NCBI GenBank assembly: GCA_963422205.2
Contig: CAXMWX010000003.1
Coordinates: forward strand, 64,001-128,000
Direction of reading: 5' to 3'
DNA from: Gammaproteobacteria bacterium
GTDB taxonomy: Bacteria > Pseudomonadota > Gammaproteobacteria > Eutrophobiales > Eutrophobiaceae
Length of the DNA: 64,000 bases
Under the pieces are notes generated by a model that saw nothing but the letters and a program-made list of their open reading frames with translations, ran no database searches and was not told the DNA's origin. The translations under genes and the position numbers were made by a program. This document shows positions 5,871 to 50,979 of this stretch, one piece after another (the first letter of the stretch is position 1; the number at the start of each line of letters is the position of its first letter).

Positions 5871-7115
5871 TTAGCAGGGCAGCAGCCTCTCTCCTCTGAG
5901 AAGATCGCTAATATCCTCCCGCTCCCGCACCACAAACATCGCCTCGCCATCAACCAGCACCTCCGCCGCCCGTGGCCGGCTGTTGTAATTTGAACTCATC
6001 ACAAAGCCATAGGCGCCAGCGGAGAACACTGCCAGCAAATCGCCCTCGGTCAAGGCCAGCCGTCGTTGCAAGCCGAGAAAGTCCGCACTCTCACACACCG
6101 GCCCGACAATATCCCATAGCTGTTGCTGCCCGTCTGTCTCCTGTATTGGCAGGATTTTCTGCCAGGCCCGGTACAGGCACGGGCGCATTAAATCATTCAT
6201 CGCTGCATCAACAATGGCGAAGTTTTTATCCTGATTGGTTTTCAGGTACTCAAGCCGTGTCAGCAGCACGCCGGCATGACCGACAATTGAACGGCCAGGC
6301 TCCAGCAACACCTGGTACTGGCCGGGTATATGCTCGCTGATGAGCTGGCCGAAGTCGGCGATGGCGGGCGGCTGCTCGGCATCGTACCGGATCCCCAAAC
6401 CACCGCCGATATCAACATGCTCAAGCGTAATGCCCCTGGCCTGGAGCCTCTCCAGCAATGCCGTAATTTCAGCCATTGCATCTGCATAGGGCCCAAGGCT
6501 GGTGATCTGTGAACCGATATGGCAATCAATACCGCATAGTTTGATATGCGCCATGTCAGCCGCTATCTGATAGGCATTCACGGCATCTTGACATGCAATG
6601 CCAAACTTGTTTTCACGCAGACCGGTGGCTATATAGGGATGGGTATTTGCATCGACATCAGGATTCACCCGAAGTGATACCGGTGCCTTGAGCGACATCT
6701 CGCCAGCGATGGCATTTAACCTGTGCAGTTCACTGATGGATTCAACATTGAAACATTTAATGCCGACAGTCAGGGCCTGGCGTATTTCTGCGCTGCTTTT
6801 ACCAACGCCGGAGAAGACGGTTTTGTCAGCTTGTCCGCCGGCTTTGAGCACCCGCTCCAATTCGCCAGCAGAGACAATATCGAACCCTGATCCCAGCCGG
6901 GCCAGCAGATTCAGGATGGCAATATTGCTGTTGGCCTTGACGGCATAACAGATAAGATGCTGGCGGGCGGTTAATGCCGTATCATAAGCACGCCATTGTT
7001 GCTCAACAGCACATCGAGAATAGACAAACACCGGGGTGCCAAAACGCTGGGCGACATCGGTCATGGCGACTCCCTCAGCATGCAGCAGGCCGCCGATAAA
7101 ACGGAAGGTTTGCAT
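5871..7115 (-). CDS. lysA: Diaminopimelate decarboxylase
   Basis: PLP lysine YAVKAN, HIGSQ, EPGRS, GPVCESAD, SNYNSRPR. Confidence 0.97.
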   Translation of the reverse strand: MQTFRFIGGLLHAEGVAMTDVAQRFGTPVFVYSRCAVEQQWRAYDTALTARQHLICYAVKANSNIAILNLLARLGSGFDIVSAGELERVLKAGGQADKTVFSGVGKSSAEIRQALTVGIKCFNVESISELHRLNAIAGEMSLKAPVSLRVNPDVDANTHPYIATGLRENKFGIACQDAVNAYQIAADMAHIKLCGIDCHIGSQITSLGPYADAMAEITALLERLQARGITLEHVDIGGGLGIRYDAEQPPAIADFGQLISEHIPGQYQVLLEPGRSIVGHAGVLLTRLEYLKTNQDKNFAIVDAAMNDLMRPCLYRAWQKILPIQETDGQQQLWDIVGPVCESADFLGLQRRLALTEGDLLAVFSAGAYGFVMSSNYNSRPRAAEVLVDGEAMFVVREREDISDLLRGERLLPC

Positions 7116-7201
7116 CGTGTTGTCAGGCGTGTTGAGGTTCAGTGCGGATGTCGGCTTGCCGGATGAATATCCCGGTTATTTTTCGGGCGTATTTGCCCGG
7201 A

Positions 7202-7318
7202 TCATTGGCTTACATCAGCATCATGTCCTGCATAGCGATCAGGCAAATACAGATCGCCCTTCTGGCCGCAACCCGCCATACCAAGACATAATACAATGCA
7301 CAGAATACGTTCTCTCAT
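7202..7318 (-). CDS. lptM: Small lipoprotein LptM/LppL (YifL family)
   Basis: Lipobox and family motif MAGCGQKGDLYLP; canonical position upstream of lysA. Confidence 0.8.
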   Translation of the reverse strand: MRERILCIVLCLGMAGCGQKGDLYLPDRYAGHDADVSQ

Positions 7319-7639
7319 GCGTATGCTTAAAATAGCAACAATGTGCTTGCAACCGGTAACAAAGATAGCGATCATCTTCTGCAAGCCCGGGCAGAATGTC
7401 AAACAAAAATGCCCCGGATGGGCTACCTAAAGATGGGCTGATTTTAGGGCTGGCGCAATTTGTCGGCTCGAATAATGCCAACTGCCCGCTTGAAATCCGG
7501 GCATGTAAACCCAGTGTGTAGTATGTCAGCCCGGCAAACCGGTATAGCTAATCACTTGCAATGCCGATCAAGATGCTATAAAAATAGCAAGGCTTGCCTT
7601 GCAGCACATCGCCACCATTAATGAGGACATCAAACCACC

Positions 7640-7966
7640 ATGAGCGAGAAAATTATTCATGTATCAGACAGCAGTTTTGAACCAGAGGTATTACATTCTG
7701 AGCGGCCGGTGATGGTTGACTACTGGGCTGAATGGTGTGGCCCCTGCAAAATGATTGCACCGATCCTTGATGAGCTTGCTGATGAATACGGTGATAAGCT
7801 GACGATCGCCAAGATAAACATTGATGAGAACCCGGCAACGCCACAGAAATATGCCGTGCGCGGCATTCCCACATTAATGATCTTCAAAGGGGGCGAAGTG
7901 GCTGACACCAAAGTGGGTGCCATGACCAAATCACAGTTAGCCGCTTTTATCGACAGTGCCATTTAA
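7640..7966 (+). CDS. trxA: Thioredoxin 1
   Basis: WAEWCGPCK; precedes rho. Confidence 0.98.
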
Positions 7967-8179
7967 AAACTTGAAAATAAAAACTTAAAAAATCCACTGG
8001 ACGCAGGCGACATGTCGTGCTAAGTTTGCCGTCAGCCCCTGTCCACAGACACGCATTAAGTTCTTAACAAATCCGATAAAACGTCCAATAAATGTATAGA
8101 ACACGCTGGACATGTTCCAGCTTGGTATGGCCATGATTGTGCCGTTCATTCCCTGCAATCCAAACACGGCTTAACGTCT

Positions 8180-40478: not shown

Positions 40479-40792
40479 GGGCCTGTAGCTCAGTTGGTTA
40501 GAGCAGTGGACTCATCAAAACGGTGCGTTCATATCGAAAGATATGAAATGAACGGGATGAATTCAGGGAAACCTTAACGGTTACGCTGATGGCAACCCTG
40601 AGCCAAGCCGGGGGTACACCGCCGGAAGGTGCAGAGACTACCTGAGAACTTCAGTGTTCTTAATAACAGGCAAGAGCGTCCCGCACCCTGCCGTTATCGG
40701 TATTAGGGGTGATGAGATAGTCCGCTCCTGTTGGAAATAACAGGAAAGAGTGAATCCATTGGTCGTAGGTTCAAGTCCTACCGGGCCCACCA
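40479..40792 (+). tRNA. tRNA-Ile2 (anticodon CAT, lysidine type) interrupted by an intron; exons 40479-40515 and 40753-40792
   Basis: Joined exons form a 77-nt cloverleaf GGGCCTG TA GCTC AGTTGGTTA GAGC A GTGGA CTCAT/AA TCCAT TGGTC GTAGG TTCAAGT CCTAC CGGGCCC A CCA. Paired 1-72 argues against initiator; sequence and position after rpoD fit Ile2. Confidence 0.93.
40516..40752 (+). ncRNA. Group I self-splicing intron (237 nt, no ORF)
   Basis: 5' splice after U with U.G pair in P1 (CAUC/GGUG); P AATTCAGGGAAA, Q AACCCTGAGCC, R GCAGAGACTA, S GAGATAGTCC; P7 GACTA 40636-40640 / TAGTC 40718-40722; terminal G 40752. Confidence 0.93.
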
Positions 40793-40873: not shown

Positions 40874-41350
40874 TCATGTGCCGGAGGGTTGTATCCTGCT
40901 TATTTTGTATCGGCGGCGGTTCTGTATTCCTCGGATAATATGCGCCGTCAGCAAGAAGGGAATGAGGAAGCCGACAGCTGCATGCAAGTAAGCAATGATC
41001 GTTCTGATATTCTCAGCTGCAAGGTAGTAAAGCGCATAAGCCGTTATGATTTGAAATGCAAACGCACTGCATAGCGTCATGCCCAGATAGCGCCATTTGG
41101 CCAGCGCCAAACCAGAGGCGATATGACTGAATAACAGGCCGCCATAAATTATCATCATCAGAAAAGCAGCAGCACCATGTAGCATCAATGCAGGTTGTTG
41201 CCAGGGATGTTTTTCAGGGCCGAATTCGCCTTCCACGATGAACCATGTATTTAAGATAAAAAACACGACCCCGCTAACCCAGCTTGTTGTTAATGTGGCA
41301 AACAGAAACAGCCTGAAACTCAGCGGTATTCTAAGCGTTATGAACGACAT
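40874..41350 (-). CDS. Small membrane protein with intramembrane His residues (cytochrome b-like)
   Basis: Four hydrophobic helices with LHGAAA, FSHI, LHAAVG, TAHI; last gene of the apbE cluster. Confidence 0.6.
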   Translation of the reverse strand: MSFITLRIPLSFRLFLFATLTTSWVSGVVFFILNTWFIVEGEFGPEKHPWQQPALMLHGAAAFLMMIIYGGLLFSHIASGLALAKWRYLGMTLCSAFAFQIITAYALYYLAAENIRTIIAYLHAAVGFLIPFLLTAHIIRGIQNRRRYKISRIQPSGT

Positions 41351-41364
41351 GATTGCAGCACATT

Positions 41365-42198
41365 TTAAGACAGTCTGCCTGTCTCATCTATCACGACCAG
41401 TGTGGCGTTGATCGAATCAAACAGCACATGATACCCACGCAGTAGATAAGCGACTTTTGTCAAGCCATCTGCCAGCATGCAACTGTCGGCAAAGACGGAA
41501 AAACTGCTGTTTTCCATTACGGGAAGGCCGGATGCCGGTGTAATGATGACACTGCTGCCATCCAGATAGTAAGCGGCGCTGGTGGCAAGCGCATCTGCCT
41601 GCATCTGTAGTGCTACCAGTGTTTTTTTATCTTCGCCGGGAGACTTGATGAAGACCTCTTTGCCTTGCCAGTGATTCATACGAAGATCGCCACCCGCATT
41701 GACTGTGACATCCACATCATCATCAAATAATGAGATGGCCTGATCGACGGCATATCCCTTGGCAATGCCCCCCAGATCGATAAGCATGTTTTTTTCAAAG
41801 CTAACCTCCCCGGCCTGCAATGTTATGTCTTGCCAGCAGGCAGACGGCTCAACGTTATTTTTAATACAAGGCAGATGCCCTCGTTTGACCAATTCCGGTG
41901 CGATGCTGATATCAAAAATACCATCGGTTAATGCGCTTATTTCCAGCGCCTGCCTCAGCACGGCCTCCATATCCCCGGAAATTTTGCATGGATTAAGATG
42001 GGCATTTAAGTTGATATGTGTGAGCTCGCTGTCAGCATCATGAAAGCTCATCAGTTTTTCAATTCTCTGTATTGCTGCATAAGCCTTGTTGCTCATCTCA
42101 ATAAGCACATCATCCGTCACATCAGCCGTGATATTCACTTCAACATAAGTGCCAAGCAACGGCTTACAGCGGGAAAGGGAATTCATCAACACGGCCAC
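41365..42198 (-). CDS. apbE: FAD:protein FMN transferase (ApbE family)
   Basis: LLGT, DSEL, G.FDI, DLGGIAKGYAVD, NAGGD, ATS, ADGLTK. Confidence 0.92.
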   Translation of the reverse strand: MAVLMNSLSRCKPLLGTYVEVNITADVTDDVLIEMSNKAYAAIQRIEKLMSFHDADSELTHINLNAHLNPCKISGDMEAVLRQALEISALTDGIFDISIAPELVKRGHLPCIKNNVEPSACWQDITLQAGEVSFEKNMLIDLGGIAKGYAVDQAISLFDDDVDVTVNAGGDLRMNHWQGKEVFIKSPGEDKKTLVALQMQADALATSAAYYLDGSSVIITPASGLPVMENSSFSVFADSCMLADGLTKVAYLLRGYHVLFDSINATLVVIDETGRLS

Positions 42199-42207
42199 GA
42201 AGTGAAT

Positions 42208-42756
42208 TTACAGGCGGCTCAATACCTGCTGCCATGTATGTGTGAGGCGATTGACCGCATCGGTGATATGCCGGCAAGACAAAGTGGCACCTGAGATATT
42301 TTTTATCTGCTTGTCAAGTTTTAATATCTCCGTGTGATCCCTGCCATGGAACTGGGCACGCCATTTATCATTTCTGATCTCATGCCCGTAGGTTTCACGA
42401 TAGACCAGCACCTCAAGCCCTTTGACTTTTCCATCGGCCGTCAATGCAAAGGCGACATCAATATTCTCATGCTTGCCTATGACTGAATCAACGATAAACC
42501 AGCCCTGCTGACCGACCTTCCAGGTCTTCAAAACACGGCTTCTGACCCTGGTCTTCGATGTCTTGTGAATCGACTTCATTTGCGCTTTTGAAAGCTCGAC
42601 CGTGACAGGCTGCATGGCGGCATCACCCCAGAGTATTTTCTTTGCCTGTGCAACCGTGAGATAGGTTTTGGCCTGAAGTGTTAATGGTTTGAACAGCAAG
42701 CCCAATAAGGCCGCCGATAATGAGGTTGTCAATGTGCGTCTTTTCACAAAGAGCAA
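42208..42756 (-). CDS. Exported FMN-binding (flavinylation target) protein
   Basis: Signal peptide, YRETYG..I....W..QF, flavinylation motif ISGATLS. Confidence 0.85.
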   Translation of the reverse strand: MLFVKRRTLTTSLSAALLGLLFKPLTLQAKTYLTVAQAKKILWGDAAMQPVTVELSKAQMKSIHKTSKTRVRSRVLKTWKVGQQGWFIVDSVIGKHENIDVAFALTADGKVKGLEVLVYRETYGHEIRNDKWRAQFHGRDHTEILKLDKQIKNISGATLSCRHITDAVNRLTHTWQQVLSRL

Positions 42757-42764
42757 GAGGCTGA

Positions 42765-43715
42765 TTACCAGTTATAACCCACATGAAAACCGAGATGAAA
42801 TGTCTCATGCTCATCGTAGTTTTTACCATCTTTTTGAAAGGCACCGCCTTCGCCGTTTCTACCGCCGCCGGCAAACTGATACAACAGCCCAAGCGTGGCA
42901 AACCATTTCTGCTCAGCATAGTGGATACTCGGCCCGATGTAGTTGCCATTCTGGAATTGGCTGCCAATCTCCCAGTCAAACAGATCAAACTCCGAGCAAT
43001 CCACACCTGCTTCCGGGATGCCCTCCTCCTCAACACACAGATAGTCTGACTGTGAACGTATCTCAGCACCGATAAACCATCTCGGGGCGATGCGATAAGA
43101 GACCCCGAAGGCAACATCAAAGGCAATCTCTTCCTCTAACACGCCCGGCGTTACGCGGCGTTCAAACTCCATCTTGCCGAACAAGGCAAACACCAGGGTA
43201 TCGTCGAGAAAATTCTTTTGCAGAAAGAGTTGCGGGACAAAAGAATCCTGATCAATGTCGGCACCATCCAGGCGATAGTGATTCCGTCGCTCCCAGGCAA
43301 AGCCCACCGAGAGACCCATAAAGTCTTTATACGGGCTTAAAATATTATATTTCGCTTTCAGTTCAAACCCGCCGATGACGGTGGCATTCACACTGCCGCC
43401 GTTGGCCTCCTGGGTCTCATGCACGGGATTATTCCCCGCTTCAATCCCCGAATAATTATGATTGAATATCATCAGGGCAGCAGACAGGGTAAATTTGTTG
43501 GTGAAGCCGTATTCAACCTCCGGGCGAATATCATGAAAGGCATAACTGCCGGAGCCTTTGCCCAGCCTGGCGATGTAATTCAACTTTGCCTCATAAGTGC
43601 CCGCAGGACGGGTATCTGTCCCTCGGGCATAGACCCACAGGTTCTCCCCGGCATGGGCAGTCTGGCTGGCGATTAACACAATAAAAAACTTAACGTACAG
43701 TTTACGAAGCACCAT
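42765..43715 (-). CDS. Putative outer-membrane beta-barrel (DUF6662-like)
   Basis: Signal peptide AHA-GE, alternating beta strands, EVEYG.T, GPSIHY, aromatic C-terminus VGYNW; RBS GAGGGG before ATG 43715. Confidence 0.7.
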   Translation of the reverse strand: MVLRKLYVKFFIVLIASQTAHAGENLWVYARGTDTRPAGTYEAKLNYIARLGKGSGSYAFHDIRPEVEYGFTNKFTLSAALMIFNHNYSGIEAGNNPVHETQEANGGSVNATVIGGFELKAKYNILSPYKDFMGLSVGFAWERRNHYRLDGADIDQDSFVPQLFLQKNFLDDTLVFALFGKMEFERRVTPGVLEEEIAFDVAFGVSYRIAPRWFIGAEIRSQSDYLCVEEEGIPEAGVDCSEFDLFDWEIGSQFQNGNYIGPSIHYAEQKWFATLGLLYQFAGGGRNGEGGAFQKDGKNYDEHETFHLGFHVGYNW

Positions 43716-43767
43716 ATCTTTCCCCTCAGGTTGGAACGAAAATAACAAACCCTATCTTAAACACAAA

Positions 43768-43782
43768 TGATAATGATTTACA
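43768..43782. promoter_or_regulatory. Fur box
   Basis: TGATAAT-G-ATTTACA vs 7-1-7 consensus TGATAAT-N-ATTATCA, in an AT-rich promoter region about 55 nt upstream of the barrel gene. Confidence 0.65.
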
Positions 43783-44215
43783 GTATTATTTTTATTAGTA
43801 TATAATTTAACTTGAACACATCACTCTGGAAAGTCAATTTATTTTAGTTAAATCAGATAGTTATTGAGTTATGTCTGACGCCGGCAATCATACAGGGCGG
43901 GCAATCACCCACCCGATTCTCTTTCAGGGATCATGGCCACACAGTGGCCAGCGTGAAGTGGATACCGCATGACAACCGCTTATGGTGTGATCTTTATTTC
44001 ACCCATGCCGCCAGCACAGATGATAGTTAAGGGCTGGCAGTCAACGCACCCCGGCCTGTGCGCTGATGGAGGTTTGAGGAGGCCAGATCAATGATTGGCT
44101 CAAGGTGAGCCCGGCGACAAGCAATGTATTCAATGCACCGCCATCACCGTTTCTACCGCCGGCAGCAATGCGCCTGGAGTCGGTGTAACGTTCGGCGCGC
44201 AAATGACATGCTGGG

Positions 44216-44770
44216 TTATCCGCTATCAGACAACCGGCTTTCCCCTCTCATTTGAGCCAGCTTGAGTTTTTTATTTCGGGCAAGATAGGGCAGAAAAAAT
44301 AAATACAGGCCAGTCAACCAGAGTATCAGCAGGATCATGGCGGCGGGCAGAAAAATGCCGAGCTTGACCTTGTCATGGAAGAAAGTGCCATCGTGAATGG
44401 ATTCAATAATATCCGAACGCCGATAGGCCATATTGAGCACCTCGGCCGATTGATGATCCAGTTGTATCTCCCAGTTATCAGCCGCCCGTATTTTTATCAC
44501 GCCTTTTGCAGGGCGTATATCAATGCGAGCGATATCGCCCCAGGTGTTTATGGTTGAACCCGGCGCCATGCTGGCGGCATCCAGGATTTCAGCCATGCTG
44601 AGTGTCGGTATTTTTCCCTGCCCTGAGGCGGTCGGCGGCTGTATCCAGTCAATGTCTTTTTTCAGCAATAATACGATGCCTGAGCCAATGACAACAATCA
44701 CCGGCAGCGCAATGATGATCGCCCCCCAGTAGTGAATTTTACGGGCCAGTTTTTTCCAGTTCACTCTCAT
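44216..44770 (-). CDS. PepSY-associated TM helix protein
   Basis: RKIHYW...SG, periplasmic PepSY-like segment, IESIHDG, LWLTGLYL. Confidence 0.85.
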   Translation of the reverse strand: MRVNWKKLARKIHYWGAIIIALPVIVVIGSGIVLLLKKDIDWIQPPTASGQGKIPTLSMAEILDAASMAPGSTINTWGDIARIDIRPAKGVIKIRAADNWEIQLDHQSAEVLNMAYRRSDIIESIHDGTFFHDKVKLGIFLPAAMILLILWLTGLYLFFLPYLARNKKLKLAQMRGESRLSDSG

Positions 44771-44991: not shown

Positions 44992-46338
44992 ATGACATTA
45001 AAACCAGTGCAACATATTCCAACCTTGGAAATCTCGCCGCAAATCAAGACGCAGGAATTCTTCAGCCCCAGAAAAGTCAGCACGGGCAGGTTTTATTATG
45101 AGGCCAGAGCACACCGGCACTGTCCGCATGTAGTGAAATTCTCAGGCGGCAAAACCAGCGGTATGCTGTTGTTTATTTTGCTGGAATCAGGTCTGCTGAA
45201 AGCCGAACGGGGAGATGTCGTTATTTTCAACAACACCTCAGCTGAACATCCCAAGACCTATGAGTTTGTCAGGCAATGCAAATGCATTGTCGAGCAACGT
45301 TATCACATTCCCTTTTTCTGGGTTGAGTATCAAACCTATGAAGATGCAAGACAGGGTGAGTATGTGCGCCTGTCCTCTTTCAAGCTGGTCAACACCTCGC
45401 CCTGTTCCAAAACCAACCCTGATGGTTACCATCATCGGGGCGAAGTATTTGAAGAGCTGTTATCCCATAAAGGCTACGTACCGACCCTGTTTCAACGGGT
45501 ATGTACGCAAGCTCTGAAGCTGGAAAGCAGCCGGTTTTTTCTACAGGAATGGCTCGCCAATAAGGAGGAAACCGAGCGCTTGGGACACTTCGGAGAAGTC
45601 AGCCGCATTGATGACGATGAGACCTACAGGCGGCACATCAAACACGGCGGTGCTGTGCCTCGTGATATTTTTCTCGCTAAAAAAGCCTTTCTGAAACAAT
45701 GCAGCCTGGCACGCAGCTCGCAAAAGTGGACGGATTTCAGCGATGCCGTCATCCCTTTTGCCAACAGGGCGCTCGATGGCAAGGTGTATGGCAAAAGGGC
45801 GCATCTCGGTGCGGATGGTGTCGAATATATTTCCTTCGTTGGCATTCGCTACGATGAGATGCAGCGTATCAACAAGATACAACGGCGCAATGCGGGCGGC
45901 CCTGATGCGAAGGGCTATGAGGGGGAACAGGTCTATATGCCACTCGCTGGCATGAAAATAACCGAAGAAGACGTGCAGGCTTTTTGGGATAAGCAGACTT
46001 GGACGCTGCAACTCAACAGAGGCGACAACCTGTCGAACTGCACATTCTGCTTTCTCAAAGGCACACAAAAGCTGGCAGCCGCCAAGCGGGCGCTCAAGCA
46101 GGATCAGGATAACGTATATGCAAACACACCCTGTGATATTCGCTGGTGGGCTGAAATCGAAGAAAAATATGGCCGTGATATGGAGGCTGAAGGACGGCAA
46201 ACCCGGGCGAATGTGGCGAATAATTTTATCGGCTTCTTCGGTGTTTCCAGTGGGATGTCCTACCGCTCGTTGGCAGACGGCCTGGATACAGCCACCCAGT
46301 CATCTGAGGAGGGTCTGCCCTGTGATTGTACGGACTGA
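44992..46338 (+). CDS. PAPS reductase-like / PP-loop ATP pyrophosphatase with Cys clusters
   Basis: PP-loop FSGGKTSG, NTSAEHPKTYEFV, RVCT..LK, GIRYDE, MPL, NCTFCFLKG, C-terminal PCDCTD; start 44992 or 44953. Confidence 0.85.
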   Translation: MTLKPVQHIPTLEISPQIKTQEFFSPRKVSTGRFYYEARAHRHCPHVVKFSGGKTSGMLLFILLESGLLKAERGDVVIFNNTSAEHPKTYEFVRQCKCIVEQRYHIPFFWVEYQTYEDARQGEYVRLSSFKLVNTSPCSKTNPDGYHHRGEVFEELLSHKGYVPTLFQRVCTQALKLESSRFFLQEWLANKEETERLGHFGEVSRIDDDETYRRHIKHGGAVPRDIFLAKKAFLKQCSLARSSQKWTDFSDAVIPFANRALDGKVYGKRAHLGADGVEYISFVGIRYDEMQRINKIQRRNAGGPDAKGYEGEQVYMPLAGMKITEEDVQAFWDKQTWTLQLNRGDNLSNCTFCFLKGTQKLAAAKRALKQDQDNVYANTPCDIRWWAEIEEKYGRDMEAEGRQTRANVANNFIGFFGVSSGMSYRSLADGLDTATQSSEEGLPCDCTD

Positions 46339-46340
46339 GC

Positions 46341-47490
46341 ATGTCATCAGCACCAATATATCTCGATAACCAATCGACCACGCCTCTGGCCCCTGAAGTG
46401 CTGGAGGCGATGTTGCCCTATTTCAGGCAAGCCTATGGTAATCCGCATTCCGGTGAACATGTTTTTGGCTGGCAGGCGTTTTCCGCCCTGGAGAATGCCC
46501 GGCTTGAGGTGGCCGAATTAATCGGGGCAGAAAAATCCGACATCATCTTTACCTCCGGGGCGACCGAATCCGTATCACTGGCGATTCAGGGCGCAGCCCA
46601 ATCCCCCGTCAGGGGCGGGCAGTATAAAATTATCACAGTCGCCACCGAACATGCCTGCGTTTTGGCAAGCTGCCAGCAAATGCGCCGCCATGGCTATGGA
46701 AGTAACCCTGTTGCCGGTCGCCAGCGATGGTCGGGTTGATCTGGCTCGCCTGCAACGGCAGGTGGATGATAAGACGCTGCTGGTGTCCGTGATGCTGGCA
46801 AATAATGAAATCGGGGTGCTCCAGCCGGTCGGCGAAATCGCTGCCATCTGCCGAAGCGCTGGCTGTCTAAGCCATACTGATGCCACTCAGGCCGTTGGTA
46901 AAATTCCGGTGGATGTCGATGTCTTAGGCGTTGATATGCTCAGTGCCTCGGCGCACAAATTCTACGGACCCAAAGGCATTGGCCTACTTTTTATTCGTCC
47001 CGGTATAGAGCGGCGGTTACACCCCATGATGCAGGGCGGCGGTCAGGAAAAAGGCTTGCGCCCCGGCACCGTGCCAGTGCCGCTGGCAGTCGGATTCGGC
47101 ATGGCGGCAAGACTGGCTGGCGAGACCATGGCAACTGAAGCCAGGCGGCTGGCGGAACTGCGTGACCTGTTGCTTAGTCGGCTGCAACAAAACATCTCAG
47201 ATCTTCGGGTGCTTGGTAGCATGGAACACCGCTTGCCGGGCAATCTGTCGCTTGTCTTTCCCCATGTTTCAGGCAATACTTTGGTCGCCAGGCTGGGTGA
47301 ACAGCTGGCCATATCCACAGGATCATCATGTTCGTCAATCAGCGCCGAACCCTCGCATGTGATCAGGGCGCTAGGCTTAGGTGAGGCCATCGCCAGCGCT
47401 GCCCTTCGCATCAGCATCGGGCGTTTCAATACCAAAGACGAAATAGAGCAAGCCGCTGACTGGCTTCTGACGGCAGCAACGGGAAGTTAA
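46341..47490 (+). pseudogene. Group I cysteine desulfurase (IscS/DndA-like) with a +1 frameshift
   Basis: YLDNQSTTP, FTSGATES, TEH in the first frame; NNEIG, HTDATQ, SAHKFYGPKG, STGSSC in the next. Removing one G at 46698-46699 gives a continuous 382-aa ORF. Confidence 0.9.
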
Positions 47491-47494
47491 AATA

Positions 47495-49259
47495 GTGAAA
47501 ATAAAAAAACACCCCGACCTTCATTTCAATGCTGGTGCGGTGGAAGGTTTTACCTCAGCAGGCGTACAGGCGTTCAATGAGTTAAACCCGGACGCCATTG
47601 TGCGGGAGCTGATCCAGAACTCACTGGATGCGGTGCGTGAAGCTGGCCGAGAGCAGGCTATGATGCGTTTTGAGTTAGAAAAGATAGCGCTTGATAAGGT
47701 ACCGGCGATACAAACCTATAAAAAGATATTTAAGAAGGTATGCGACTCGCAAAAACGACATTTTAACAACGAACTGCCCGATCAGGCAGCGATAGTGGCA
47801 GGTACGATAGATGAGGCGCTGAAACAGCCCAGGGTTCAGATGCTCTCGGTGCTGGATAACGGGCTGGGACTGGACGAGGAGCGCATGTTCGGCCTGCTGG
47901 CCGATGGCATGAGCATGAAGCCAAGTACCGGTGCTGGTGCGGTCGGCAATGGTCATCTGACCGCTATTCCCGCCTCCAATCTGCGCTATGTGCTGTATGG
48001 CGGGGTCAGCACCGGAGGTCAAAAGATAGCATCCGGGCATGCCGTTCTGGCTTCCTTTGCCGATGAGCAAGGGATCTGCATGGGCAAGGATGGCTACTAT
48101 GCGCTGTCGGTGTGTGGACAGATGCAAAACCCCTATGAGTTTGTCCCTGAAGATAGCATGGCCCGGCTGATTAAAACGAAGTTGGACTGGATTGAAACGT
48201 ACTCGGACTCTAAAATGGGCGCCGCCGTCATCATACCGGCCTTCAATGGTTTTAAGGAAAAAGCAGACCTGTGGGCGCTGATCAGCAAGGCGGCGGCTTG
48301 CAGTTTCTTTGCCGCCATCGCCGATGGTCATCTGCATATTATCTACCGGGACGGTGCTGGCGAGCAGCGGCCGCTCTCGCATTGATTTATGTCGCAATGG
48401 CATGTGGATCACTGACGATTTGCCCGGTTTGAAACCCAGCAAATTCACGGATCGTCGGCCTTTTCACGCCGTGATAAAAGTGACCGCCCAAGATGGCCAG
48501 ATCCACCAGCTGATACGTAAATCAGAAGGGCCGCTGCACAATCATATTGAAGCGAGGAAATGGCTTCGGCCGGAAGAGGCGAAAAAACTAAAAGAAGCCT
48601 TTGACAAAATTGCCGACTTTCTCTTGGAGAAACTTGAGCGGCTTGCCGAGGAGTCCTTTGAGGTGGATGATTTTTTGAACATTCAGATAGAGGATAGCGG
48701 CGCTGCTGGCGGGAGGCGCACCGGTAATATCGGCCAATTCGAAGAAGAACCCGAACCCCGACCAAGGGTGTCAAGAGGCAATAGGAATCCACCCAATCCC
48801 GGCCCAACACCACCAAACCTTGACCCCAATCCTGTGCCAACCCCTAATGTATTCAAGCGCAGCGGCAACGCTGTGCCCTTCGGGGCCACGCCCGTACCGA
48901 CCGGGCGGCGCTCTTGGGAGGTCGAACTGCACCCCCGGCAAAACCTCAACGCCGATACCGAGGCAGAAATCCGCTTTATCCTGGATGAGAATATCGACAG
49001 CAGTTGCGACCCCGGCAGTGAAGAGCAATTCGTTATTTTGACGGCGGTGGAACTGAACGGGCAAGCAGTGGCCGCTGATGAATTGATCAGGGGTGCTGAC
49101 GGCGTACTGGGTGTGCGGTTGGGTCAATTCAACCCCGGCGAGAACTATCGGCTCAAGTTCGACTATGAACTGCCGGCGGGCCTTGATGTGCCGAGCGGCG
49201 AGCGCGTACTTCTGCGTGCTGAAATCGTCCGCCGTCGCCAACCAATGCGAGAACAATGA
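47495..49259 (+). pseudogene. GHKL (Hsp90/MORC-like) ATPase domain protein split near 48365-48385
   Basis: N-box IVRELIQNSLDA, G1 LDNGLGL, G2 GAGAVGNG; coding continues in another frame (RIDLCRNGMWIT...) up to the ATGA overlap with the next gene. Confidence 0.75.
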
Positions 49260-50116
49260 TGACAAAACCGGCCCCAGCCGTGCGCTCGCTGCCTCACCCC
49301 GCCATAGAAGACGGCAACTTCTCCTTTCCCGATGGTAAATATCAGGTGACAACGCAACTGCCGGGCAATACTGGCGACCGGGTTATCCTTCACCATCAGC
49401 TAACCGGTGCGCCGTTTATTGAACGACTGCTCAAAATGGGCGAGGCAAGATTCGCCTGCCTGGTGTCGGTATCAAAAACTGGCTATCGCAAGCTGCATAT
49501 AGCCGCTGAGACTGAGGCCAGGCAGGAAGTCTGCTGGGATTTGGCAGTGGTGGGTGAGCCGCCCCGGCTGGGTCCGCTGGTGTTGTATCTTGGCACCGGT
49601 CTGAAACACAGATTCACCGAACAGGACGGCGTGGCGCCGCTCTGGCGAGGGCGGGACATTGACCTGCCCAGAGGTGTGCGGCTGGCGAGGGGGCGCTACC
49701 GACGTCCGGCGGCCTCCATTGCGAATCTGCTAACTGTCAGGCGCAACGAAGAGTTGCCGGCTGGCAGCTTCACTGTGGCTGATAATACCAATGCGGGATT
49801 TTATTTTAGCCTGGCTGCTGCTGCCGATATTTTTCAATTTCTGCAAAACCCACAAGATAACAGCGCCCTGAGGTCCAGCATTCTCACCCATGCGGTGAGC
49901 CAGTGCTTTAACATCCTGCAACGCAACTACAGTGCATCCGAGGAGGACGATGGGGCAGATGGCGGTTGGGAGCAGCATACAAATCTGGTGGCCCTGGCCG
50001 GTTGGTTGCAAGGCAAGGGTATGCCCCACTGGAGCGATAATGATTTTGATGCCATCGAAACAGCGACAAGGCTATATCCAATCAGAGTGCCAGCGCATAA
50101 GGATGAGGAGGCATGA
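49256..50116 (+). CDS. Hypothetical protein of the PAPS-reductase cassette (N-terminal SLPHP motif)
   Basis: 286-aa ORF with ATGA overlaps at both ends. Confidence 0.75.
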   Translation: MMTKPAPAVRSLPHPAIEDGNFSFPDGKYQVTTQLPGNTGDRVILHHQLTGAPFIERLLKMGEARFACLVSVSKTGYRKLHIAAETEARQEVCWDLAVVGEPPRLGPLVLYLGTGLKHRFTEQDGVAPLWRGRDIDLPRGVRLARGRYRRPAASIANLLTVRRNEELPAGSFTVADNTNAGFYFSLAAAADIFQFLQNPQDNSALRSSILTHAVSQCFNILQRNYSASEEDDGADGGWEQHTNLVALAGWLQGKGMPHWSDNDFDAIETATRLYPIRVPAHKDEEA

Positions 50117-50979
50117 TGGGCTATTGGGCATTGAATGATGCTGACTATACCGGCCTGCGAAAAGACTTGCTGAAAGAAAAAGGCAGCACTCTACAACAGG
50201 AATTTATTGCAGCAGCGAAGAGTAACTCAACCTTTATCGCCCAGATAGACCAACGCATCGGCTTGGAAAAAACAGGCGAGCCATTCAAACTCCTGGCTGA
50301 GCCGCTATCGGAAGGTGAATACAAAGCGCTGCCGCTAACAATGGAACAGCAGTTGTTTGCTCAATGGGCGGGGATAATGCCAGCCCAGGCCAGCGAGGAA
50401 ACCTTCTGGGGGTATGTGACGCTGGAGCATATCCGGCAGGGGCGCATCGAATCTGGCTATCTGGCTGCCAATGGCGGCGACAACGGCGAGGAGCGCATTG
50501 ACAAGGCGTTGAGCGATGCTGATGTGAAAAGCACGGATGGTGTGATACGCACGATTTTAAGGCGGCTCGGCGGCCTGCCGGAGAGGGGTAGAAGAAGCCT
50601 GTATGTGGACTGTCCGTTTGCGCGCGCCTGGTGGCGGGGCTATGTGGCGCAGCAGGTATGTGAGGAGACCGGTGCCGCTCACGGCAAGGTGGCAAAGGTG
50701 CTGGGCTTTACACCCACTTACTGGGAAAAACTGATTGTTCTGATTGTCTCTCGAAATGCCGTGCTGGGCGACAGCAAGGTGCGCTCTGCCCTGATCTGGG
50801 CTCTGTCCGAATGGGTGGAGGATGACAGTAAACAGACACTATTCCAGAGTAAGACCATTCAAAGGATTTCCCGGCAGATCGGCATACGCTGTGCCTGGCA
50901 GGAGCTTGGTGCATTCGAGGCTAGGGACCTGAAACAGATGATAGAGCAGGACTTTCTGCCCGATTTACGCGCAGGCTGA
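50113..50979 (+). CDS. Hypothetical helical protein, DUF6339-like
   Basis: 288 aa, RBS GAGGAGG; PAQASEETFWGYVT and FARAWW recall DUF6339 motifs (from memory, unverified). Confidence 0.6.
   Translation: MMGYWALNDADYTGLRKDLLKEKGSTLQQEFIAAAKSNSTFIAQIDQRIGLEKTGEPFKLLAEPLSEGEYKALPLTMEQQLFAQWAGIMPAQASEETFWGYVTLEHIRQGRIESGYLAANGGDNGEERIDKALSDADVKSTDGVIRTILRRLGGLPERGRRSLYVDCPFARAWWRGYVAQQVCEETGAAHGKVAKVLGFTPTYWEKLIVLIVSRNAVLGDSKVRSALIWALSEWVEDDSKQTLFQSKTIQRISRQIGIRCAWQELGAFEARDLKQMIEQDFLPDLRAG

Follow-up and report, generated by a model that had tools for sequence, protein, structure and literature searches.

To our knowledge, phosphorothioation is the only known modification of the DNA backbone. 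Four phosphorothioate writer systems, dnd, ssp, tdp and brxPCZL, are given as established in a 2026 survey of dndC and sspD neighbourhoods, which is cited here and below from the part of it available to us (PMC12914056). According to that part, phosphorothioate synthesis in Dnd, Ssp and type 4 of BREX (bacteriophage exclusion) needs a PAPS-domain protein together with a nucleoside triphosphatase (NTPase; a P-loop NTPase in the survey's search criterion), tdpC alone suffices for synthesis, and in BREX type 4 the PglX methylase is replaced by the PAPS-domain protein BrxP (PMC12914056). A candidate for a further arrangement is encountered in the window, the whole stretch of 64,000 nucleotides analysed here, which comes from a gammaproteobacterium of the Eutrophobiaceae (assembly GCA_963422205.2, contig CAXMWX010000003.1, positions 64,001 to 128,000). 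At positions 44992-50979 of the window's plus strand, five co-oriented genes combine a putative sulfur-inserting enzyme and a cysteine desulfurase with a GHKL-type ATPase and two small proteins. On balance, we favour the reading that this is an undescribed phosphorothioate-type modification and restriction system, a two-module cassette for the discrimination of self from non-self, decayed in the present copy. The whole case rests on in-silico evidence.

A preliminary description, made from the letters of this DNA, had proposed an undescribed system in which a sulfur-transfer writer marks DNA and a GHKL module acts as reader or effector. This interpretation is supported, since the co-occurrence of the two modules and the exchange of the writer were both found; DNA as the target, phosphorothioate chemistry and a restriction role in defence are what we infer. 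The claim of novelty stands in part. No full-text description of the cassette was found in the papers searched, and none naming DUF6339 or PDC-M33, in a search that did not extend to the supplementary neighbourhood lists of PMC12914056, which possibly hold the family. Only the pairing with this writer is new, whereas the GHKL trio is already catalogued in PADLOC as the candidate PDC-M33 and the principle of a PAPS-type writer with a desulfurase is known. Since the 2026 survey required both a P-loop NTPase and BLAST similarity to DndC or SspD at E<=1e-5, it would have missed the family of the first gene (PMC12914056).

The cassette and its sulfur enzymes

Gene 1 (44992..46338) encodes an intact PP-loop protein of 448 amino acids with four cysteine motifs, the putative sulfur-inserting writer. 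Its stop codon at 46336-46338 lies 2 nucleotides before the ATG of gene 2 at 46341. Gene 2 (46341..47490) is a pseudogene of a group I (IscS/NifS/DndA/SspA-like) cysteine desulfurase, and a gap of 4 nucleotides separates its end from the GTG start of gene 3 at 47495. Gene 3 (47495..49259), the second pseudogene, corresponds to a GHKL-type ATPase of about 650 amino acids in intact relatives. It is followed by the intact genes 4 (49256..50116, 286 amino acids) and 5 (50113..50979, 288 amino acids), which are joined to it and to each other by ATGA overlaps at 49256-49259 and 50113-50116. The layout of five co-oriented genes with these gaps and overlaps had been read correctly from the start. The products of genes 3, 4 and 5 are called A, B and C below.

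The existence of the five-gene operon is confirmed; it is conserved in bacteria of many phyla and has spread horizontally. With one genome per species, 176 records encode a relative of gene 1. The 80 best loci were examined, and the open reading frames (ORFs) of all six frames in these loci were searched with hidden Markov models (HMMs) built in this analysis. The PP-loop gene is accompanied by A, B and C in 73 of the 80 loci, and in 61 of the 80 all five genes are present, co-oriented and in the order of the window; the desulfurase alone is missing in 12. Among the remaining seven, contig ends cut three (L047, L070 and L081), insertions displace A as far as the end of the covered stretch in two (L011 and L072), and two are taken up below. 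The lineages include Alpha- and Gammaproteobacteria, Binatia, Latescibacterota, Dehalococcoidia, orders of Acidobacteriota, Spirochaetia, Nitrospinota, and orders of Verrucomicrobiota and Gemmatimonadota, among others, and identity of gene 1 across the 80 loci is only 46-66%. In one related genome the order is altered, with A, B, C and the PP-loop gene last, and in another four of the genes stand between kdsA and eno, with no desulfurase. That the linkage survives both rearrangement and transfer between phyla marks the cassette as a probable functional unit and argues for a linkage that is not accidental. The association of genes 1 and 2 with genes 3 to 5, which the preliminary description had proposed as a check, is thus borne out.

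In gene 1, the motifs noticed earlier (SGGKTS, RVCT, CTFC and a C-terminal CDC) are all read in the translation, as KFSGGKTS, QRVCT, NCTFCF and a C-terminal PCDCTD. The match to Pfam PAPS_reduct falls under the cut-off (E 0.0027). Among the PADLOC models, gene 1 matches SspD (2.1e-9), BrxP (5.5e-5) and DndC (0.017); the SspD match of 35.5 bits covers residues 154-193 alone, about 40 residues, and the BrxP match is confined to the PP-loop region. Four bona fide SspD genes, obtained from 300 genomes of the class, were aligned as a reference, and hhalign of the gene 1 family against them gives 96.1% probability and E 2.9e-9 over 169 columns. The PP-loop, RxCT, (I/L)R(A/Y)DE and CxxC motifs are in register, and a C-terminal cysteine pair is found in both, CxxC in SspD and CDC in gene 1. 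Given that the profile comparison is this strong and the catalytic-type motifs coincide, gene 1 is a genuine, though distant, SspD homologue. It is longer than the four aligned SspD proteins (448 against about 260-290 amino acids) and has two large insertions relative to them, at about residues 105-150 and 200-278. In an alignment of 17 family members, KFSGG..S, C171-T172, C350xxC353 and the C-terminal PC(D/H)CTD are invariant, and the window's gene 1 keeps every invariant column.

The gene 1 family is large, with 1197 clusters (90% identity) that pass E<=1e-5 among 4754 candidates, and its members, where the source names them, are called 'hypothetical' or 'PAPS reductase'. PAPS_reduct clusters make up 22 of its 30 neighbours in the ESM Atlas, and a profile search of PDB sequences gave nothing significant. 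In the genome that contains the window, a search with PF01507 yielded, beyond gene 1, two strong matches, one fragment and one gene read as tilS, and a search with the SspD model returned no match at E<=1e-20. The tilS candidate is a second, divergent gene of PAPS-like type that follows ORFs of 1161 and 323 amino acids; it was set aside, its context being one that we take to be dnaE-accA-tilS from gene order. A weak gene 1 relative on a Bosea plasmid (L108:7120-9295) was likewise rejected; this short PAPS sulfotransferase-like gene is unrelated and lies between the genes of thymidylate synthase (thyA) and dihydrofolate reductase (folA). The source field of that Bosea isolate names a sponge genus.

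Gene 2 was earlier called a group I desulfurase on account of STGSSC. This motif and SAHK are read in the translation, the two pieces of the gene match Pfam Aminotran_5 (4.4e-29 and 1.7e-51), and the larger piece matches the PADLOC models of SspA (3.8e-96) and DndA (8.6e-96), in agreement with that assignment. None of the NCBIfam equivalog cut-offs is reached by gene 2. The same genome has further genes of the class V aminotransferase fold, SufS among them.

The preliminary description had hinted that some of the proteins need repair, and two of them do. The breaks were mapped with the closest intact homologues, those of locus L008. Gene 2 has a frameshift of 1 nucleotide near 46690-46700, with ORFs that end at 46739 and start at 46651, and gene 3 is short of some 60 codons, residues 293-352 of the L008 protein being without a counterpart, with a change of frame at about 48370. 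Over 46300-49300 the window is matched exactly by Logan contigs from two public runs of a single study, with word depths of 7 and 548. The window itself may derive from them, yet they are separate assemblies, and because both carry the identical sequence the breaks are unlikely to be assembly errors. In this genome, A is destroyed, the desulfurase is frameshifted and the cassette is decayed, while the writer, B and C keep all invariant residues. At most, the writer could still work here as an orphan, fed by another desulfurase such as SufS. The loss of the effector with retention of the writer would fit a restriction-like role of the trio.

Split matches that suggest broken genes also occur in loci L036, L044, L051, L052 and L080, whereas in loci of the L031 and L037 type the five genes are all open. 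Sponge-symbiont names are found among the 80 loci (Candidatus Entotheonella, Ca. Porisulfidus and Ca. Poriferihabitaceae; L018, L042, L060 and others), and other loci come from lineages that are common in sponge-symbiont communities.

The GHKL trio and its writers

Genes 3-5 match the PADLOC candidate PDC-M33 in order, with 2.2e-24 for A, 2.1e-4 for B and 1.6e-3 for C; the C-terminal piece of gene 3 matches PDC-M33A separately at 0.0021, the stronger value belonging to its N-terminal piece. 'PDC-M' presumably denotes a multi-gene candidate. The GHKL boxes that had been noticed in gene 3 are read in the translation as RELIQNSLDA, LDNGLGLD and GAGAVGNGH. They are invariant in 36 homologues of A, as E38/N42/D45 in the N box (ExxxNxxD), D121/G125 in the G1 box (DxGxG) and G148/G151/G153 in the G2 box (GxxGxG), and all three are present in the N-terminal piece of the window's gene 3. 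R361, E405 and H409 are invariant in the C-terminal half of the same homologues. Pfam HATPase_c has no match in gene 3, a PDB profile search with A reached HtpG, Topo VI-B and MORC3 only at the insignificant E of 0.7-1, and the ESM Atlas returned unnamed clusters only. A likeness of gene 5 to DUF6339 had also been suspected; it just passes the cut-off of the Pfam model PF19866 (23.3 against 23.2 bits, E 6e-5), which makes the match marginal, and a methylase-linked relative in L095 scores 137.8 bits.

The structure model of B (pLDDT 89.7) predicts an N-terminal beta-sandwich and a helical C-terminal part, and that of C (pLDDT 93.6) is all-helical. Foldseek found nothing for B in the PDB at E<=0.001, and a wide search with VIA gave generic FN3/Ig-like matches only (best Z 7.5). 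For C there was no meaningful fold match in the PDB, with a best E of 0.87 in Foldseek and a best Z of 5.7 in VIA; such a lack of matches does not show that the folds of B and C are new. A complex of B with C was predicted with an ipSAE of 0.76, where the best of three controls scored 0.00, with contact agreement of at least 89% and a partner pLDDT of at least 86. Among solved complexes, 58 of 80 attain the level of 0.76, as do 2 of 110 mismatched pairs, a rough calibration since own alignments were used. The model supports binding of B to C without showing it. An identity of genes 3-5 with SspFGH was considered and rejected, because no SspF, SspG or SspH model matched and because, in the available part of the source, SspF is described with a Walker A motif and SspH as FtsK-like (PMC8092258).

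The preliminary description had asked whether genes 3-5 pair with DNA methyltransferases elsewhere, and they do. A search with PDC-M33A in 401 genomes of the phylum gave 8 matches, and in two of the seven other genomes whose flanks were taken (L095 and L098) a C5 cytosine methylase stands in an operon of A, B and a DUF6339 gene (Pfam 2.3e-63 and 4.3e-36 for the methylases, 4.2e-40 for DUF6339). Among seven plasmid loci inspected, five have the full A-B-C set and, at a distance of no more than 6 kb, a methylase (Deinococcus, Priestia, Ligilactobacillus, Halorussus and Arthrobacter), and in four of these five NCBI annotates the third trio gene as 'DUF6339'. The record of the Lactococcus plasmid locus ends just after A, and the seventh is the unrelated Bosea match mentioned above.

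A larger set was drawn from metagenomes, as the best 80 of 134 relatives found with an alignment of A led by the methylase-linked type; genes were called in this analysis and labelled with the HMMs built here and two Dcm queries. Some flank is covered in 74 of these 80 loci, and a C5 methylase (Dcm) is the immediate neighbour of the trio in 38: in 28 it is co-oriented and lies directly upstream, in 9 it comes directly downstream of the third gene, and in 1 it is upstream on the opposite strand. It stands elsewhere in the locus in 11, and a PP-loop gene is directly upstream in 2. No Dcm is present in 13 loci with both flanks covered and in 10 with one flank covered, and 6 have no covered flank. 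The 20 upstream neighbours other than Dcm include 7 Sigma70_r4 helix-turn-helix proteins, 2 HNH_2 proteins and 1 MutH.

The two sets of A proteins, gathered with different queries, were placed in one unrooted FastTree tree of 106 sequences. Of the PP-loop-linked A proteins with 600 amino acids or more, every second one was used, and of the metagenome ORFs only those of at least 560 amino acids. The 40 PP-loop-linked sequences form one side of a single branch with an SH-like (Shimodaira-Hasegawa-like) support of 100, so that the label changes once on the tree, against a mean of 32.3 after shuffling. Both PP-loop-linked A proteins of the metagenome set fall inside this side. We conclude that the trio is, as far as gene neighbourhoods and the tree indicate, a constant chassis that pairs with interchangeable DNA writers, and that the window holds a member of the clade that goes with the sulfur enzyme pair.

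Large Sigma70_r4 proteins recur beside the trio. They follow C in L040 (14293-16242) and, by BLAST clustering, in L052 and L066; one follows the writer in L072 (9332-10966), and they lie upstream of A in L162, L165, L168 and L173. The A proteins of the Sigma70_r4-linked metagenome loci form a clade of their own, and the Sigma70_r4 protein may be a third type of partner. An ORF of about 75-80 amino acids is often directly upstream of A in the methylase-linked loci (L109-L112, L106 and many of L121-L200), and the sulfur-linked cassette is without it. In L019 (1869-17238) three complete A-B-C sets stand around a single PP-loop gene, and an ORF at 6073-7977 of that locus matches the models of both B and C.

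Possible roles of the two modules and genomic setting

In the favoured reading, the first module would be the writer. The dedicated desulfurase (gene 2) would make a persulfide from cysteine, and the SspD-like PP-loop ATP pyrophosphatase (gene 1) would activate the target with ATP and transfer the sulfur into host DNA, by analogy with SspD, DndC, BrxP and TdpC. The mark would most probably be a phosphorothioate, because every detectable gene 1 relative is a phosphorothioate writer and known partners of phosphorothioate systems are linked to the cassette. The second module, the GHKL ATPase A with a B-C heterodimer, would use ATP to act on unmarked DNA. BREX methylation needs the whole complex, and the A-B-C chassis may likewise be needed for writing. 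In about a third of the loci, a DUF262 protein resembling GmrSD and SspE may provide a second effector.

Such DUF262/GmrSD_N homologues were found in 26 of the 80 genome loci with phmmer and one such protein as the query, between the writer and A in 13 and directly after C in 13. The gene encodes about 560-620 amino acids (e.g., L010:10497-12185 and L034:14288-16102), with GmrSD_N in its N-terminal half (Pfam, 3.8e-24), and Pfam adds one further GmrSD_N gene in L057. The window's copy has none. These proteins match HEC-05, PDC-M55C and NsnA of PADLOC; in three that were scanned, the SspE model had no match at E<=0.01. SspE also has a DUF1524 nuclease half. DUF262 is the domain of SspE involved in phosphorothioate sensing, and it recurs near dndC, according to the part of the survey cited (PMC12914056).

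Two of the 80 loci carry larger insertions. In L072 (9332-16119), the writer is followed by a helix-turn-helix protein, a PbeA homologue (5.6e-151) and a PbeC homologue (3.7e-45), and then by A; a mad3-like protein lies upstream, and six further ORFs of the locus had no match to a PADLOC Dnd or Ssp model at E<=0.001. PbeABCD depends on phosphorothioate. In L011 (1493-15732), the cassette is beside type II-B cas9 and cas1, and between the desulfurase and A are a PLD-like (DrmC/ZacB-like) gene, a helicase and a second GHKL gene (MzaB-like).

Several observations weigh against the favoured reading. The window's own copy is defective. The similarity of gene 1 to SspD, DndC and BrxP is remote, with PAPS_reduct under its cut-off and no PDB relative by sequence. 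Neither Foldseek nor VIA recognised in B or C the fold of a nuclease or of another effector. The linkage has exceptions, in that the writer pair of L013 is not accompanied by the trio within 6.8 kb downstream and L074 is without C. Both flanks lack a Dcm in 13 of the 80 metagenome loci, and in at least two of the seven plasmid loci the methylase adjoins a restriction enzyme of its own, so that such cases prove nothing. Finally, A might be a cofactor of the writer and not an effector, because in Dnd, Ssp and BREX-4 an NTPase is needed beside the PAPS-domain protein to make phosphorothioate (PMC12914056, part cited).

The last point leads to a real rival, given that the chassis may be needed for writing: a machine for modification only, like SspABCD, which we consider unlikely but worth serious attention. 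Gene 1 would be its SspD, gene 2 its SspA, A the ATPase partner analogous to SspC, DndD or BrxC, and B-C would target or nick the DNA; restriction would come from the optional DUF262 and Pbe genes, and loci without these would be orphan epigenetic writers. The gene count corresponds one-to-one to SspA-D plus SspE, the missing nuclease fold in B and C and the position of the DUF262 gene at the edge of or inside the cassette (26 of 80 loci) are as expected, and 83.9% of sspBCD clusters have no known restriction partner, according to the available part of that source (PMC8092258). The requirement for an NTPase in Dnd, Ssp and BREX-4 points the same way (PMC12914056). Against this rival, tdpC by itself can write phosphorothioate (PMC12914056), A belongs to the GHKL and not to the P-loop proteins, and L019 keeps three A-B-C sets around one writer. 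The trio family, moreover, is most often found beside a C5 methylase, its immediate neighbour in 38 of 80 loci, and C5 methylases methylate without an ATPase.

The trio could instead read a DNA mark other than phosphorothioate, for instance a thiolated base, a view that we regard as improbable. It draws on the distance of gene 1 from every validated phosphorothioate writer, with its greater length and two large insertions, and on the base mark that the trio would read elsewhere, beside writers of 5-methylcytosine. ThiI, MnmA, Ncs6 and TtcA thiolate bases. These sulfur-inserting RNA enzymes are described, in the part of the survey cited, as sharing the pyrophosphatase activity (PMC12914056); the detectable relatives of gene 1 are nevertheless SspD, BrxP and DndC, not models of the TtcA/TtuA type, and the DUF262 and Pbe partners linked to the cassette belong to phosphorothioate systems. 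Very little credence is given to a target outside DNA, in which genes 1 and 2 would act on RNA, tRNA or a small molecule and the trio would be an independent, modification-blind defence or stress module that travels along. In its favour, no DNA-handling fold is recognisable in B or C. Such an arrangement would leave unexplained the tight, translationally coupled linkage in 73 of 80 loci from many phyla (the writer pair is alone in one locus), the consistent neighbourhood of the trio family with DNA methylases, and the Cas9, Pbe and GmrSD-like neighbours.

The preferred reading, a sulfur writer with a restriction-type GHKL module, can be put more boldly. It may be, and here our confidence is tentative and a little short of even, that the cassette represents a fifth family of sulfur-based DNA modification defence, in which an SspD-like writer with its own desulfurase and without a P-loop NTPase is paired with a GHKL/B-C effector that lacks a recognisable nuclease fold and elsewhere reads 5-methylcytosine. 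The family would be spread over many phyla, including lineages with sponge-symbiont names, and its mark could even be another sulfur lesion. If true, this reading would add a fifth architecture to sulfur epigenetics and so extend its known range, on a scale of more than 1000 protein clusters at 90% identity in many phyla, and would assign a function to the DUF6339/PDC-M33 trio. It would also be a second natural case, after BREX 1 and 4, of the exchange of a methylase for a sulfur writer on one chassis, an exchange that is in itself an experiment, already set up, on the reading of marks of different chemistry by an effector.

The cassette lies in what was earlier called an accessory region, and the gene 1 family is indeed present in just 3 of 41 related genomes, its own counted. 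A tRNA reported about 4 kb upstream is found at 40479-40792 (+), 4.2 kb from gene 1, by ARAGORN in intron mode; the default mode gave no tRNA in the window. The gene bears a group I intron (Rfam, 40504-40744, 76.5 bits) of about 237 nucleotides in the anticodon loop and stands directly after dnaG-rpoD. ARAGORN in intron mode gives the anticodon CTG. The splice of group I introns follows a U, as a result of which the anticodon would be CAT (Ile2/Met) instead; a tRNA-Ile intron is found in Azoarcus. Between the tRNA and the cassette, a row of minus-strand genes (40874-44770) encodes a 158-amino-acid ORF, ApbE, an FMN_bind protein, a DUF6662/OMP beta-barrel protein and a PepSY_TM protein, in this order, and is absent beside the suf genes of the relatives G002 and G008.

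Downstream are an opposite-strand glutathione S-transferase gene, an Rrf2 regulator, SufB (Pfam) and SufS (PF00266). The complete suf operon described earlier is confirmed by Pfam for Rrf2, SufB and SufS, whereas SufC and SufD are assigned from position alone. The flanking ORFs match unrelated Pfam families. Because G002 and G008 share only Rrf2-sufB and no other flanking genes, and the contig of G001 ends there, the borders of an island are not definable.

Relation to described systems

The cassette resembles Ssp in combining a group I desulfurase with an SspD-like PP-loop protein that has the same order of motifs, including the C-terminal cysteine pair, and in the optional DUF262 partner of related loci, as in SspE. 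It differs in that neither SspB (DUF4007) nor SspC (DUF6079) is matched, the GHKL trio being in their place, and in that gene 1, at 448 amino acids and with two insertions, scores no more than 35.5 bits against the SspD model, in a match of about 40 residues. Gene 2 is of the DndA/SspA type common to Ssp and Dnd, though frameshifted here. DndABCDE combined with DndFGH or PbeABCD is similar in having a desulfurase and a PAPS-type writer with a separate restriction module, and homologues of PbeA and PbeC even occur inside the cassette in L072. Unlike in Dnd, the DndC match is only at E 0.017 and DndB, D, E, F, G and H are not matched. More widely, in a search of the seven cassette ORF products against PADLOC at E<=0.1, no model of DndB/D/E/F/G/H, SspB/C/E/F/G/H, BrxC, PglZ or BrxL matched, which upholds the absence of DndB/D/E, SspB/C/E, PglZ and BrxC noted in the preliminary description.

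TdpA and TdpB, a translocase and a nuclease, are not GHKL proteins. TdpABC, compared by description only, shares with the cassette a PAPS-type writer that possibly has no need of a P-loop NTPase and a separate effector module, in so far as the cited part describes it (PMC12914056). PDC-M33 is the closest match for genes 3-5, with the same order A-B-C, kept in 73 of 80 loci, and DUF6339 as the third gene. In contrast to it, the cassette has weak matches for B and C, an A that falls with the other PP-loop-linked proteins on their own side of one branch, and a sulfur writer as neighbour instead of a C5 methylase. The nearest parallel for this exchange is BREX type 4 as against type 1, where a constant chassis is kept and the methylase writer is replaced by a sulfur writer with a PAPS-reductase domain (PMC12914056, part cited). 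The chassis here is a GHKL ATPase with two small proteins, without BrxC, PglZ or BrxL, and the methylases on the other side of the trio's exchange are C5 enzymes, not the N6 enzymes of BREX.

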